64,000 nucleotides of DNA from an uncultured delta proteobacterium. Lineage in GTDB: Bacteria; Desulfobacterota; Syntrophobacteria; Syntrophobacterales; Syntrophobacteraceae. Below are positions 9,306-15,086 of the stretch, in pieces. The notes below the pieces were generated by a model that searched no databases, had not been told where the DNA came from, and saw only the letters and a list, made by a program, of their open reading frames with translations. Every line of letters begins with the position of its first letter. The stretch's first letter is position 1. The position numbers were made by a program, and so were the translations under genes. The DNA lies in the NCBI GenBank assembly GCA_963808625.1, contig CAWEHK010000039.1:1-64000 (forward strand), in the 5' to 3' direction.

Positions 9306-10168
9306 CTACCTCCCCCGCGCAAAGAATTCCGCCCTCAGCCCGGCTGCTTCTTCCGGAGAAGGTTCTGCCACAGCCCGCTGATCAACTTGTGAAACCGGCA
9401 TAACACCGATCAAGGAGTTGAGCACCCAGACGGTCTCGGCCGAAAAAAGCCCGGCGACATCAGCGGAGCGTCTCTCCACCTTGGGACCCCTCTCCTCCAG
9501 TATCTTCATGACGTGCCGAAGAGTGATGCCGGGAAGTTGATAAGCACTGTGAGGCGTCCACCATTCCCCATGGGTCCTAAGGAGCAGAGAACCTGCAGCA
9601 GTCTCGGTAAGCCTTCCTTTAAAGTCGAGCAATAACGGCCTCATCGGCGCCCGCGTCCAGGGCAGCCTGCCGCGCCATCAGGCAAGTGAGATAATTCAGG
9701 GATTTCCATCGAGAAAGCGGTGGCGAAAAACCATCCCGAAAAATGTGCAAGCGATATCCGGTTCCGTAGGTGGCTGGTTGCGGTGGCTCATACTTGCGGA
9801 CATAAACCATTACCGTGGGCTCCCGGGGTATCCGGCAGACCAAGCACCGCTGACGGCCCCCTGGTTACGACGATCTTTGCGGAAGCAACCTGATCTTCCA
9901 GGCGATTTTCTCGCAACAAGTCCGCCAGGATCGCTTCCCAATCGACCGTTAACGGGAGCGGCAGCCTCAATTCTGCCAGGGACTCTTTCAGTCGCTCCAG
10001 GTGATCCCTCAGGTAAAGAACATGACCCTGCTCCGCACGCATCGTCGTAAAGATGCCATCACCGTAAAGGAAGCCCCGATCGAGAGGCGAGATGCGAGCT
10101 TTTTCGAGAGGAAGAAGCCGGCCGTTAAGATAGACCATTTCGTTTGTTTCATGGGCATCACACATCAC
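9306..10168 (-). CDS. pabC: Aminotransferase class IV / probable aminodeoxychorismate lyase; frameshifted near 9850-9800 and 9630
   Basis: DRGFLYGDGIFTT, HLERL, KSLNY, LPGIT and NSLIGVMPV are spread over three frames; lies downstream of pabAB. Confidence 0.75.
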
Positions 10169-11585
10169 GGAAGTTCTCCAGTCTTTCCATCACGTCGAAC
10201 AGAGTGCGCGCTTTGTGCAGAGTCTCCTCATATTCGTCTTCCTCGTTGGAATCATGGACAATCCCGCCGCCCACGGAAAAATAGCATAGCTCTCGATGCA
10301 CCAGGGCAGTCCGGATGGCTACATTCAGGTCCATATTTCCATGCCATCCCAGATAGCCAATGGCGCCTGTATACACATGTCGAACGTTCGGTTCCAGTTC
10401 GTCGATGATTTCCATGGCGCGAATCTTTGGACAGCCGGTGATGGAACCCCCGGGAAACGTTGCTCTCAGGATTTTGCCATAAGTGGCATTCTCCTGCAAC
10501 TCGCCCGTCACGATGGAGATCAAATGATGAACATTTTGATAGGATTCAAGCCGCTTATGGTCAGCAACCCTGATCGTTCTCGGACGACACATTCGACCCA
10601 GATCGTTTCGCAGCAAATCCACAATCATGGAGAGTTCAGCATCGTCCTTGGGGCTGGCTGCAAGCTCGAGACGCAATCGTTCGTCGTCTTCGGGGGTCTT
10701 GCCTCGAGGACGGGTTCCCTTGATGGGCCGCGTTTCAATGTAAGAACCCCGCCGAAAGAGAAAACGTTCCATGGACGTGGAAAGCACCTGATGATCACCC
10801 CCTTGGATAAAGCCGTAAAAAGGGCTTGGGTTCATCTCATAAAGGCGTTCCCAGAGTCCGAAGGGGTTTCCATGAAAAGGAAACTGAAAACGTTGCGACA
10901 GATTCACCTGATACACGTCTCCGTCGCGGATATAGCGTCGAACCCGTCGGATGGAATCCAGATAGCGCTCTCGCGTGAAATTGCTCTGCAAAGGCCCGAG
11001 GCGAAGGCTCGGCGACCTGAAGCCCGGTTTTCCCTGTGGGACGGCAATCTCTTCTGCGGCCGGCGAAAGGTCTTGCTTATTGACCAGAACAAGTCCATGA
11101 AGGCTTCCATTGTGGCGATCGTGAATAATCATCCGACGTGGAAAAAAGAGCAGAACATCCGGCAGGTTCAAGTCATCTTGGGCGGTCTGGGGCAAATTCT
11201 CGATCTGGTTCTTAAGATCATAAGCAAAATAGCCCATGGCGCCACCGGCAAAAGGGTGGGGGCCTAAAGGAAAACCCGGGTGCAACAACGCAAAGATCTC
11301 GTCAAGAATGTCCAGGGGCGCTCCCTCGAGTGTTGCGGCGCCGCCTCGAGCGGAAACCTCCACCACCCGGCCCTTGCTCTTAAACACCAGGAAGGGGTCC
11401 CATCCGGCAATTGAATACCGAGCGCAGTCCAGGTGCCCTCCGCTCAAAAGCACGGCGCTGAAGGGCTCGAATGCCAGACTCTGAACTGCATCCAAAAAAC
11501 CGGCATCATCCATGCCGCTCTGAGCCAGCAGTTGGATGGCCAGGCGCATGGGTTGCCGAGGAAGTAAGAAACTGAGCTCATTCAT
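10158..11585 (-). CDS. pabB: Aminodeoxychorismate synthase component I
   Basis: GDVYQVNLSQR, RPIKGTRPRG, AELSMIVDLLRND and FPGGSITGCPK motifs. Confidence 0.9.
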   Translation of the reverse strand: MNELSFLLPRQPMRLAIQLLAQSGMDDAGFLDAVQSLAFEPFSAVLLSGGHLDCARYSIAGWDPFLVFKSKGRVVEVSARGGAATLEGAPLDILDEIFALLHPGFPLGPHPFAGGAMGYFAYDLKNQIENLPQTAQDDLNLPDVLLFFPRRMIIHDRHNGSLHGLVLVNKQDLSPAAEEIAVPQGKPGFRSPSLRLGPLQSNFTRERYLDSIRRVRRYIRDGDVYQVNLSQRFQFPFHGNPFGLWERLYEMNPSPFYGFIQGGDHQVLSTSMERFLFRRGSYIETRPIKGTRPRGKTPEDDERLRLELAASPKDDAELSMIVDLLRNDLGRMCRPRTIRVADHKRLESYQNVHHLISIVTGELQENATYGKILRATFPGGSITGCPKIRAMEIIDELEPNVRHVYTGAIGYLGWHGNMDLNVAIRTALVHRELCYFSVGGGIVHDSNEEDEYEETLHKARTLFDVMERLENFRDV

Positions 11586-12270
11586 CGATAATCCTACCGC
11601 CGGGGATTATGTTCGAGAGGAAAGCTGAGTTATTCGATCCCGCGGGGCCGATTCTGGGGAAACAATCCAGGTTGCCATGCGGATGGTCTGCGGGTGCTCG
11701 CCATTTTGGTTGAAGGGCAAGAAAATTCGCTGCCAACTGGTATCCGTATTCGCTGAGAAACGATTCCGGATGGAACTGAACTCCGCATAGCGGCCAACAC
11801 TCGTGCTGAATCCCCATGACCACATGATCTTGGGCATATGCCAAGGGCCGCAGGCAGGGCGATCTCATGATAATTTGCAGGGAATGATAGCGTGCCACCC
11901 GAAGCGGGGAAGGAAGTCCGGAAAAGATCCCGTAACCATTGTGTTCAATCCTTGAACATTTGCCATGAACGGGTTCCGGGGCCCTGACGGTGATGCCGTC
12001 GAAGACCTCGTTGATGGCTTGCATGCCCAGGCAAACGCCCAGAATCGGGATGGTAGGCGCAAATCGGCGGATCACGTCCTTGCTGATCCCTGAATGAGCC
12101 GGATCTTTGGGCCCGGGTGAGATACAAATCCAGTCCGGCTGCAAAAGCTCTACCTTCGAGAGTGCAATCTGATCGTTTCGGTAGACCTGGACCTCCAGGT
12201 CAAATTCATAGAAGAGCTGGACCAGGTTGTGCGTAAAGGAATCGTAGTTATCAATCATGACCATGAGCAT
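11578..12270 (-). CDS. pabA: Aminodeoxychorismate/anthranilate synthase glutamine amidotransferase
   Basis: IDNYDSFT, ISPGP, GVCLG, RYHSL and QFHPES motifs. Confidence 0.9.
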   Translation of the reverse strand: MLMVMIDNYDSFTHNLVQLFYEFDLEVQVYRNDQIALSKVELLQPDWICISPGPKDPAHSGISKDVIRRFAPTIPILGVCLGMQAINEVFDGITVRAPEPVHGKCSRIEHNGYGIFSGLPSPLRVARYHSLQIIMRSPCLRPLAYAQDHVVMGIQHECWPLCGVQFHPESFLSEYGYQLAANFLALQPKWRAPADHPHGNLDCFPRIGPAGSNNSAFLSNIIPGGRIIDE

Positions 12271-12282
12271 GCTTCACCCCAT

Positions 12283-12320
12283 AAAAAAAGCCACCCCGAC
12301 TCAACGAGCCTGGGTGGCTT
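12283..12320 (-). terminator. Intrinsic terminator 12 nt upstream of the pabA start
   Basis: Minus strand AAGCCACCC-AGGCTC-GTT-GAGTCG-GGGTGGC followed by T7. Confidence 0.85.
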
Positions 12321-12343
12321 GCGCCTGACATAACTCGACCGTT
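12283..12343 (-). ncRNA. Candidate cis-regulatory leader RNA (attenuator/riboswitch) of pabABC
   Basis: Alternative hairpin CGAGUU-AUGUCA-GGC-GCAA-GCC-ACCCA-GGCUCG (12337-12305) uses the terminator 5' arm. Confidence 0.5.
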
Positions 12344-12371
12344 ACCCTATGAGAATTTCAGATTTTGTCAA
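12344..12371 (-). promoter_or_regulatory. Probable sigma70 promoter of the pab leader
   Basis: TTGACA (12371-12366), 16-bp spacer, TAGGGT (12349-12344). Confidence 0.55.
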
Positions 12372-12455
12372 GGTGATTATTAGAGCGTTGGTCGAGTGCC
12401 AATAGGCAACCGAATACCTGCATTTTCTCGGTTCAGGGCAATTCATCCCGTACGT

Positions 12456-13208
12456 TTACGGAGTCAGACGAAACTTCCACGCACAATACCATTCATCAGG
12501 ATGGGCTTCGGGGGGGCAGCCGACACATTCGGTTTCGATGCGGGGATCAATGGCCCAGGCGAAAAATGGATATTCCACCATTCCGGCGGATTTGCACGGG
12601 TAATCCGGCAAGCCGCGGCGTTTGCGGGCTGACTGCACCCGGCAGTCGTCCATGCGGAAGATGAACGAATTTTCGTCCACATCATGAATGGACTGCCGAT
12701 TGATGCGCGCGTACATCCGAAAGCCCAGGGCGCTTTTCAGGCCCTCCAGCCCTGGCGCCTGCGGAAGTCCCAATAGTTCCTTTATGCGCAGGGCCTCGTA
12801 GGGCGAGAAGCGCGACCAGCAAGTGTCATTGCACCGTTTGGCGGTGTCCATCCCGAAGCGCTTTTCGACGGCCTGGAACCACACTCCATCGTTGGCCAGC
12901 CAGTTGACCGAAACGGCATCCGCCACCTTTAACAGCTCCTCCTTCGGTAGTTGTTTCAGGCTCTTGGGAACGCCATCCTCGATCTCGAACCCGAAAATGC
13001 CGGACATGCGCTTGAGGATGATGCCCCAGGAGGCTTCGCCGGCCTCCGACTCAACCGCTGCCGCCCGGTCGATCCCAAGCTGGTAGTCCACCTCCCGGAA
13101 CCAGCACCCGTAATGGATCAAGGTGCGCCGGAAACCGTCCATCACCCATCGCACCAGCTCGGCTTGCGACAGGTCTTCGACTGACCTGGGGAATTGCTGA
13201 TCCGGCAT
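12456..13208 (-). CDS. DUF6125-like protein (two related halves)
   Basis: NWLANDGVWFQAVE, CRVQSARKR, YPCKSAG and CVGCPP...WYCAWKF motifs. Confidence 0.7.
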   Translation of the reverse strand: MPDQQFPRSVEDLSQAELVRWVMDGFRRTLIHYGCWFREVDYQLGIDRAAAVESEAGEASWGIILKRMSGIFGFEIEDGVPKSLKQLPKEELLKVADAVSVNWLANDGVWFQAVEKRFGMDTAKRCNDTCWSRFSPYEALRIKELLGLPQAPGLEGLKSALGFRMYARINRQSIHDVDENSFIFRMDDCRVQSARKRRGLPDYPCKSAGMVEYPFFAWAIDPRIETECVGCPPEAHPDEWYCAWKFRLTP

Positions 13209-13502
13209 TTCTTTTCTCCCTTCCTTGAAAGCAATCAGCTATTGGCTTGAAAGAAACGACAGGAACTCATGCTGGCCGGGATGTGCTCGAAGGAAGTCGC
13301 AGGAGACGAACCACCAGCTTGCGCGGAGGTCAGGCTACAATAAACCTCCCGCTCAGATCAAGGAAAATGGGATGGGAGAAAAGATGGAAGGTCTGGTGGG
13401 GCGGGGGAGGGGACTTCGCTCTCACTCAGCCTTTTCAAGGCCGGAAAACCGCTGATCCGTGGAGGTTACCAGTACACACGGCAGAAATCGTCGGCCATTC
13501 CT

Positions 13503-13629: not shown

Positions 13630-13677
13630 CACCAGCCACCAGCCACTGGTCACTAGCCACTAGCCACTGGTAACTAG
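13630..13677. repeat. Heptamer tandem array (CACTAGC/CACCAGC/CACTGGT, ~7 units) at the glnA stop
   Basis: Directly visible; overlaps the glnA TAG. Confidence 0.85.
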
Positions 13678-15086
13678 ATATCAAAGTAGAGTTTGAACTC
13701 GTGGGGATGCGGCCTCATCCGGACCGGGTCCACTTCACTCAAGGTCTTGTATTCGATCCAGGTCTGGATCACATCTTCGGTGAACACGTCGCCCTTGAGC
13801 AGGAATTCATGGTCGTCTTCAAGGGCTTTCAAGGCTTCATCCAGCGATCCCGGTGTCGAAGGGACCTTGGCCAGTTCTTCCGGGGCCAGGGCATAGATGT
13901 CTTTGTCCAGGGGCTCTCCCGGATGAATGCGATTTTCGATGCCGTCGAGGGCCGCCATCAGCAGCGCGCTGAAGGCCATGTAGCCGTTGCAGGAGGGGTC
14001 CGGAAAGCGGACTTCGAGGCGTTTGAGCTTCGGCGACGGGGAGTACATCGGGATGCGGATGCCGGCGCTGCGGTTGCGGCTGGAATAGGCCAGGTTTACC
14101 GGGGCTTCATAGCCCGGGACGAGGCGTTTATAAGAATTGGTGGTCGGGTTGGTGATCGCGCAGATCGCCCGAGCGTGTTTGAGGACGCCGCCAGCCGCAA
14201 ACAGGGCCATTTCGCTGAGACCCGCATACTTGTCTCCGGCAAAGAGCGGTTGCCCTTCTTTCCAGATGCTCATATGGATGTGCATTCCCGAACCATTGTC
14301 CCCGAAGAGCGGTTTCGGCATGAAGGTTACGGTCTTACAGTTGCGCCGGGCGACGTTCTTTATGACATATTTGTACCACTGCAGGTTGTCTCCCATCTTC
14401 ACCAGCGGCGCCGCTTTCATGTCGATTTCGGCCTGGCCTGCGGTAGCCACCTCATGATGCTGGCATTCGATGTTGAGGCCGACCTGTTGCAGCATCAGGA
14501 CCATCTCGGTGCGAAGGTCCTGTTGCGAGTCCATGGGGGGCACGGGAAAGTACCCTTCCTTATGGCGCGGTTTGTAGCCCAGGTTGGGGTTTTCCATCCG
14601 GCCGCTGTTCCAGATCCCCTCGACCGAATCGATGAAGTAATAGCCGTACTGACAGGCGTCATCGAAGCGGATTTCATCAAAAATGAAAAATTCCGCTTCC
14701 GGGCCAAAAAAGGCGGTGTCACCAAGGCCCGTAAACTTGAGATAGGCTTCGGCCTTTTGCGCGATGTAGCGGGGGTCCCTGGTGTAGCGCTCTTTCGTGA
14801 CGGGGTCCACCACGTTGCAGATCATGGTCATCGTCGGGACCGCCATAAAAGGGTCCATGATCGCGGTGGCGGCGTCAGGAATGATCAGCATGTCGCTGGC
14901 GTGGATGGGCTGCCATCCGCGGATGCTCGAGCCGTCAAAGCCGTACCCGTTTTCGAAATCCGCCTCACTCAATTCTTCGATGGGGTTGGTAAAATGCTGC
15001 CACGTTCCGACAAAATCCAGAAATTTGAAATCCACCATTTTGGCGCCTTGCTCTTTGGCAAAGGCAAGCACTTCCTTCGGGGTCAT
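13674..15086 (-). CDS. glnA: Glutamine synthetase type I
   Basis: [45 protein letters not shown] and NRSAGIRIP motifs. Confidence 0.97.

Follow-up and report, generated by a model that had tools for sequence, protein, structure and literature searches.

The 64,000-nucleotide window analyzed here (positions 1 to 64,000 of contig CAWEHK010000039.1, assembly GCA_963808625.1, from an uncultured delta proteobacterium) carries on its minus strand the genes pabA, pabB and pabC for the synthesis of p-aminobenzoate (pABA), a precursor of folate, and the leader in front of them raises the question of how these genes are transcribed at all. A G+C-rich hairpin, AAGCCACCC-A-GGCUC-GUU-GAGUC-G-GGGUGGCUU (12288..12320), which is built of 9 base pairs, a 1x1 mismatch, 5 base pairs and a GUU loop and into which the leader folds at -27.9 kcal/mol, is followed immediately by a U7 tract (12283..12289), the arrangement that defines an intrinsic terminator. 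Only 12 nucleotides (12282..12271), containing the Shine-Dalgarno sequence GGGGUGA of pabA (12274..12280), lie between the U tract and the pabA start codon at 12270. This interval has no space for a promoter, and transcription of pabABC must therefore cross the terminator, as had been proposed in an earlier reading of the window made without database searches (hereafter, the sequence-only reading), which described the same leader with its terminator 12 nucleotides before the pabA ATG; the leader measures roughly 55 nucleotides (about 12338 to 12283). The analysis described below indicates that the terminator is probably part of an undescribed cis-acting ON riboswitch, in which a small aptamer is embedded in the terminator itself and controls the supply of pABA; that a ligand is bound directly by this RNA is what we infer.

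The leader can adopt a second fold, a hairpin of about 35 nucleotides consisting of a helix of 5-6 base pairs (P1), an asymmetric internal loop with the sequence AUG-N-YA opposite AYCCM, and a GGC/GCC helix with a variable cap (P2). In the window, P1 is formed by CGAGUU (12332..12337) and GGCUCG (12305..12310), the internal loop by AUGUCA (12326..12331; consensus AUG-N(1-3)-Y-A) and ACCCA (12311..12315; consensus A-Y-C-C-M), and P2 by GGC-GCAA-GCC (12316..12325). The 3' half of this hairpin (GCC-AYCCM-P1 3' strand) also supplies the terminator with its 5' arm and its loop, and in many members the loop contains nothing else; in the window, ACCCA doubles as the central part of this 5' arm, and GGCUCG as the top of the terminator stem and its loop. 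The two folds share this half and are therefore mutually exclusive, and a hairpin that sequesters the terminator 5' arm, as postulated in the sequence-only reading, is indeed present. By itself, the folding energy of the leader is only mildly unusual (-27.9 kcal/mol over 75 nucleotides, z-score -2.78, with 1 of 200 shuffled sequences equally stable); the element is considered to exceed chance because it is conserved and covaries in other genomes.

When the intergenic region was compared with 40 relatives using a 241-nucleotide query, the element (approximately 55 nucleotides) was matched in 27 of them, representing three families, with 73-89% identity. The similarity begins at approximately 12337, which is the start of P1, and continues through the terminator as far as the first pabA codons. 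A search pattern built from the aligned loci, in which UAUGNCAGGC, GCCAYCC and GGNUGGCUUU were fixed and P1 lay outside the pattern, was scanned over one genome per species from 185,579 species and yielded 111 stretches. Most of their carriers are titled as Desulfobacterota lineages or as "delta proteobacterium", and the others as WOR-3, Leptospirales, Spirochaetota and Zixibacteria. A covariance model restricted to the aptamer (37 positions, 9 pairs) identified a single copy in the window's own genome. In samples of individual phyla, it matched 18 of 151 genomes for the phylum of the window, 23 of 121 for the phylum to which a WOR-3-titled carrier belongs, and 4 of 121 for that of a Zixibacteria-titled carrier. 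The occurrence of the element well beyond Desulfobacterota, and also beyond pabABC as described below, is new in relation to the sequence-only reading. Five assemblies contain two copies located before different genes (loci L046/L047, L073/L089, L038/L098, L052/L102 and L084/L085); the gene sets include two MFS genes, one of them truncated, pabA and a symporter gene (L073, L089), a symporter gene and folP (L038, L098), and two symporter genes, and in the assembly with L084 and L085 the scanned open reading frame (ORF) downstream of L084 is only 87 amino acids long and without a Pfam family, and no ORF was scanned for L085.

The P1 helix covaries strongly, and does so across three phyla. Its strands were taken at fixed offsets from the invariant letters, which left no freedom of alignment, and among 114 distinct sequences the five inner pairs are paired in 91-100%, with pair types that vary at each position (for example, AU 62, GC 49 and GU 3 at one, and GC 60, AU 35, UA 5 and CG 2 at another). 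In total, 637 of 684 cells are paired, as against 521 ± 7.7 when partners were swapped between sequences (maximum 546 in 1000 swaps). In alignment A2, 95.1% of the P1 cells are paired and 11-46% are when the partners are slid, and 149 double-sided changes were counted where 58 ± 11 were expected, a value reached in 0 of 500 shuffles. Among 41 matches found with the covariance model only, P1 is 92.6% paired, a level that again 0 of 500 shuffles attained. The letters AUG...YA and AYCCM of the internal loop are almost invariant, and AUG is invariant in 41/41 matches of the covariance-model set. The P2 core GGC/GCC is near-invariant, with a GGU/GCC wobble in 2 of 39 distinct rows, and the stem varies in length by compensated changes (GGCUU-UCAA-AAGCC; GGCUC...GAGCC; two additional base pairs in L024 and L144); these compensated length changes and the wobbles indicate that P2 is a helix. 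At L178:1501-1561(+), P2 carries a 27-nucleotide insertion that is itself a hairpin (GGCUUG...CUGACA-loop-UGUCAG...CAAGCC), with the loop letters unchanged. The conservation of the alternative hairpin, on which the sequence-only reading depended, is thereby borne out, and the element displays the features generally associated with riboswitches, namely a conserved, covarying structure in the 5' untranslated region, conserved unpaired nucleotides, and a coherent regulon.

Of the two folds, the terminator is the more stable in 112/112 elements, with a mean energy of -23.9 ± 3.3 kcal/mol versus -9.3 ± 1.7 kcal/mol for the hairpin. A Y/R pair in the terminator arm also covaries (U-A in 41, U-G in 35, C-G in 33, and unpaired in 3), and 16 of the 17 matches of the aptamer-only model that were found outside the window's own genome in the sample of its phylum have a complementary arm and then a U tract downstream. 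The single match lacking a terminator, L153:1498-1600(+), has a most stable fold in which the P2 region pairs with the start-codon region of a hydrolase gene; here the switch may act on translation, although a single case carries little weight.

The genes associated with the element form a narrow set. The 115 upstream neighbors fall into 77 unrelated clusters, the largest of which has 5 members, and the element therefore belongs to the gene downstream. Among 91 distinct first long ORFs downstream, 44 encode PabA or a fused PabAB and 39 encode Na+:solute (SSF) symporters, and the remainder comprise 2 MFS proteins, 2 Peripla_BP_6 proteins, 1 FolP, 1 isochorismatase-family hydrolase and 2 proteins without a family. 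The element is accordingly not specific to pabABC and is also found before pABA-type transporters, folP, and a hydrolase/flavoprotein pair. The symporters, which are the second most common product encoded after the element (approximately 485-570 amino acids; for example, L058:875-2500(-), L089:2548-4269(+) and L159:3-1454(-)), score best with PanF but under the PanF cut-off, and this PanF-like family is a candidate for a dedicated pABA importer. The best model for the MFS protein is TIGR00895 (aromatic acid/H+ symporter, the group of the 4-hydroxybenzoate transporter PcaK), with an E-value of 1.4e-91 and 307 bits, below the cut-off of 418.6 bits; a gene for a DUF5996 protein (L047:68-985(-)) follows such an element-controlled aromatic-acid MFS transporter gene and could be part of its operon. 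Of the two binding-protein genes, the one at L051 precedes a gene for a LivH-type permease. In the phylum sample of the WOR-3-titled carrier, 5/5 tested loci have a gene for an isochorismatase-family hydrolase and then one for a Pyr_redox_2 flavoprotein after the element. The pair is present at L163, L166, L167, L173 and L175, as well as at L153 from the window's phylum, and the hydrolase gene alone at L108/L179 and L182; as judged from these associations, the pair is a candidate for a pABA-producing or pABA-salvage route.

The carriers in which pabA does not follow the element are informative with respect to this regulon. In five of them that were sampled, four symporter-linked and one hydrolase-linked, FolP and FolK were found in 5/5 each, and a chorismate-binding enzyme in 0/5, by a search that matches 14/14 known genomes as a control; the genome of L108, which is hydrolase-linked, is among those in which no such enzyme was found. 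The picture is that of pABA auxotrophs in which the pterin diphosphate required by FolP is still produced, and pABA auxotrophy is thus indicated for several carriers without pabA downstream, three WOR-3-titled bins among them. FolK, which makes the pterin diphosphate, is encoded in every carrier checked, and the window's own genome encodes both FolK and FolP.

These observations can be combined into a mechanism. The transcript would begin with the aptamer-like hairpin; in the default state, the terminator would form and transcription would stop before pabA, and when the hairpin is locked, RNA polymerase would read through. Such a weak hairpin needs to be locked for read-through to occur, and the switch is therefore predicted to be ON by architecture. 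The genes it would turn on converge on pABA supply: synthesis by pabABC, uptake by a PanF-like Na+:solute symporter, an aromatic-acid MFS symporter or a LivK-type ABC system, and, in addition, the hydrolase/flavoprotein pair and occasionally FolP, which consumes pABA. The effector would then be a small molecule that reports the demand for pABA, a signal that is preferred because pABA and folates are themselves unfit as inducers of pABA synthesis and import. By analogy with the HMP-PP (thiS) riboswitch, whose ligand was found through the same kind of reasoning from gene context, the leading though still tentative candidate for the ligand is 6-hydroxymethyl-7,8-dihydropterin diphosphate, the pterin co-substrate of FolP, or its unphosphorylated precursor. 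An ON-type switch that responds to a folate-related ligand or to an RNA-binding protein, as the sequence-only reading had suggested, is supported by both the architecture and the gene associations.

The transcription start is predicted to lie within a few nucleotides of P1. The window contains a minus-strand promoter with a -35 box TTGACA (12366..12371), a 16-nucleotide spacer and a weak -10 box TAGGGT (12344..12349; 3/6 consensus letters), exactly as the sequence-only reading had it, and the promoter geometry would place the start at the first P1 pair (12336..12338), approximately 7 nucleotides past the -10 box. In relatives, the -10 box at the same place reads TAAGGT, CATAAG or TATAAT; of 112 distinct elements, 41 have a TTGAC box 38-45 nucleotides before the UAUG anchor, and near-consensus promoters of the form TTGACA-17-TATAAT stand equally far from the element at the WOR-3 loci. 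This conserved promoter places the predicted start just before P1 and not inside or after the terminator. A consensus promoter and terminator scanner reported neither a promoter nor a terminator in the window, because the -10 box has only 3 of the 6 consensus letters and because the scanner accepts a single stem with a loop of up to 8 nucleotides, whereas this hairpin has a 1x1 mismatch.

Several points weigh against the reading of the element as a metabolite-binding ON switch. The invariance of the letters fixed in the search pattern is, in the set obtained with that pattern, a matter of construction, and the model-only matches were found with a model trained on that set and are less biased, yet not unbiased. 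The carriers are mostly metagenome bins. The three core pairs of P2 never covary, although they are doubly constrained because they are also terminator bases. Termination as the default state, and with it the ON polarity, is predicted from thermodynamic models and architecture, and three RNA runs (5-7% of the sampled words; fragments of relatives) gave zero cover over 12276-12445 and are uninformative on start, termination and read-through. The folP gene follows the element at a single locus, at a distance of 290 nucleotides, and the absence of PabB from the five genomes sampled above is not proven, their completeness not being given. The pterin proposal derives entirely from gene logic and analogy. 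Finally, the hairpin is very small, and a small-molecule effector and a protein effector are indistinguishable here.

That last point leads to the most serious rival, in which the RNA switch is the same but an antiterminator protein binds the internal loop in the manner of BglG or LicT at a RAT hairpin and stabilizes the hairpin under a shortage of pABA or folate. The architecture is exactly that of a RAT, in which a small, imperfectly paired hairpin has a conserved internal loop and overlaps the terminator 5' arm, and approximately 11 invariant loop nucleotides would suit binding by a protein no less than by a ligand. However, the element has no conserved neighbor that could encode such a protein: the 115 upstream neighbors are unrelated, and the genes downstream specify enzymes and transporters. 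The presence of an identical core in three or more phyla, and also in small genomes of 1.7-2.3 Mb in the phylum sample of the WOR-3-titled carrier, is more easily explained by a self-contained RNA sensor; a factor encoded in trans is compatible with both observations, and we regard a protein effector as unlikely but worth serious attention. Somewhat less likely is a variant nested within the riboswitch reading, in which the ligand is not a pterin but a general signal of folate shortage, such as ZMP/ZTP or another accumulating intermediate. The ON polarity would suit a deficiency signal, and ZTP riboswitches do turn on folate-related genes, but the regulon of the element is limited to pABA supply and FolP, the one-carbon and purine genes typical of ZTP regulons are absent from the 91 distinct downstream ORFs, and the Rfam model for ZTP gives no match.

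If the hairpin were instead the default, and termination were induced when pABA, folate or a protein loaded with either bound to the terminator form or to the 5' strand in its free state, the element would be an OFF switch. The hairpin is transcribed ahead of the terminator 3' arm, and end-product repression is described as the most common logic for biosynthesis and import genes in the part of PMC6478431 drawn on here. Against this, a hairpin with a mean of -9.3 kcal/mol should lose unaided to a terminator with -23.9 kcal/mol, and it is only in the hairpin that the conserved loop nucleotides come to lie opposite one another. A pseudoknot holding P1 and the terminator together was considered and is sterically excluded in short-loop members such as L030, in which the terminator loop consists wholly of the P1 3' strand; an OFF switch is accordingly held to be improbable. 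Least probable of all, to a degree that makes it nearly negligible, is that there is no regulator and that the structure is the ordinary terminator of the gene before it, complementary by chance, or attenuates through a leader peptide read from the conserved AUG. The terminator does lie downstream of a DUF6125 gene in the window, and the loop AUG is invariant and opens a readable ORF there. The ordinary terminator was rejected because the upstream genes are unrelated at nearly every locus, whereas the element recurs together with the same classes of downstream gene, and P1 covariation likewise argues against chance complementarity. The leader peptide was rejected because insertions of 1-2 nucleotides directly after the AUG (AUGCCUCAGGC, AUGUUCAGGC) and variable terminator loops shift the frame, and yet the nucleotides that follow are still conserved.

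The reading of the element as an ON riboswitch for pABA supply has consequences that can be pursued through its regulon, which assigns testable functions to the symporter family as a pABA importer and to the hydrolase/flavoprotein pair as a possible source of pABA. In its fullest form, a new class with a 35-nucleotide aptamer for the pterin diphosphate or its precursor that balances the arms of folate synthesis, and a regulon that names the first dedicated bacterial pABA importers and a two-enzyme pABA route in bacteria lacking PabB, the proposal is possible but, as a whole, rather doubtful. If it were true, the two arms of folate synthesis would be balanced by switching on pABA supply; the importers would be the PanF-like Na+:solute symporter family, the aromatic-acid MFS transporter and the LivK-type ABC system; and the hydrolase and flavoprotein would constitute a previously unknown pABA route. 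A natural aptamer of 35 nucleotides would also be usable as a compact sensor part.

In the window itself, the first regulated gene, pabA (11578..12270, minus strand), encodes the glutamine amidotransferase (GATase) of aminodeoxychorismate synthase, as identified by profile search. It is followed on the same strand by pabB (10158..11585), which encodes aminodeoxychorismate synthase component I (TIGR00553, 333.2 bits versus a cut-off of 328.4), and by pabC (9306..10168), which encodes aminodeoxychorismate lyase (Aminotran_4, profile search). In the assembly, pabC is split over three frames, 10168..9788 (profile positions 1-71), 9843..9619 (75-140) and 9644..9306 (139-223); the two frameshifts reflect either a decaying gene or assembly errors, the genome being 84.6% complete. 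Upstream of the leader and on the same strand are the DUF6125 gene (12456-13208), whose stop codon is at 12456, and a glutamine synthetase gene (13674-15086); the clustering of upstream neighbors revealed no recurrence of DUF6125 beside the element in other loci. Upstream of the promoter, GGCACUCGACC (12390-12400, minus strand) is able to pair with GGUCGAGU of P1 (12333-12340) in transcripts that read through from the DUF6125 gene. A larger structure including this pairing by 12400..12390 was set aside, because the similarity in most relatives begins only at approximately 12337.

The element is likely to represent an RNA class that has not been described. The 4227 models of Rfam 15 were searched against window positions 11000-13500 (E<=10), 20 representatives (E<=1) and 20 long loci (gathering thresholds), and no family matched the element. 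Covariance models for THF-I, ZTP, T-box and other cis-regulators in Rfam gave no match, in agreement with the lack of resemblance to THF, ZTP and T-box leaders noted in the sequence-only reading, and at gathering thresholds no tandem partner riboswitch was detected in the 20 loci. The only hit above a gathering score in these scans of the loci was a tRNA in L030. No published description of the element, or of RNA control of the pABA branch, was found in a literature search outside whose range subscription journals lay, and term searches of the main texts of PMC5737381, PMC8632094 and PMC11109978, supplements excluded, found no description of it.

To our knowledge, known folate-related riboswitches sense either the end product (THF-I and THF-II) or a signal of one-carbon shortage (ZTP), and the systems closest to the present element are found partly outside this group. 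RAT hairpins, which are bound by proteins of the BglG/SacY/LicT type, overlap the 5' arm of a terminator and permit read-through when stabilized. The element resembles them as a short imperfect hairpin that overlaps the terminator 5' arm and whose stabilization would lead to read-through; unlike them, it has no PRD-type antiterminator genes or sugar phosphotransferase system genes among its adjacent gene classes, and its regulon concerns the supply of a cofactor precursor. The THF-II riboswitch (folE motif), according to the sections of Chen et al. (2019; PMC6800512) used here, is an OFF switch with the ribosome binding site in the right shoulder of P1, occurs only before folE in Rhizobiales, and is a P1/asymmetric bulge/P2 hairpin with conserved nucleotides in the bulge that recognizes a reduced pterin ring. 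With it, the element has in common the folate pathway, a simple hairpin of that form and conserved bulge nucleotides, and yet the likeness is superficial. Unlike THF-II, the element competes with a terminator and has an architecture that predicts ON polarity, and folE is absent from the 91 distinct downstream ORFs; the element also gave no Rfam hit at E<=10 in the window or at E<=1 in the 20 representatives, in searches that presumably included a THF-II model.

The HMP-PP riboswitch (thiS motif) offers the closest functional parallel. In the part of the report by Atilho et al. (2019; PMC6478431) drawn on here, it has its aptamer embedded in a terminator, acts as an ON switch, senses the other precursor of its pathway and occasionally has thiE in its regulon, and, of the two phyla in which it occurs, only Firmicutes is named there. 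The present element differs in its pathway, which is that of folate and not of thiamin (thiS, thiE and other HET-P genes, and thiamin genes altogether, account for 0/91 distinct downstream ORFs, and no thiS, thiE or other HET-P gene was seen among the further downstream genes identified); in its carriers, which are titled Desulfobacterota, WOR-3 and Zixibacteria as opposed to the Firmicutes named in those passages; and apparently in its conserved sequence and fold, for which no Rfam hit was obtained among 4227 models that may or may not include one for HMP-PP. Of those membership features of the HMP-PP and THF-II families that were testable, it shares only the terminator embedding of HMP-PP. 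As in the part of the HMP-PP report considered here, a very small aptamer lies almost wholly inside an intrinsic terminator, the folds are exclusive and the polarity would be ON; the embedding and the exclusive folds mean that the element works like the HMP-PP family, which is not proof of belonging to it. The parallel with those passages extends to the logic of control, in that one precursor of a two-part cofactor is controlled and the coupling enzyme is occasionally included in the regulon, here in the form of pabABC and transporters with folP once. A second terminator-embedded ON aptamer, in another cofactor pathway and in other phyla, would make precursor balancing by minimal switches a general strategy.

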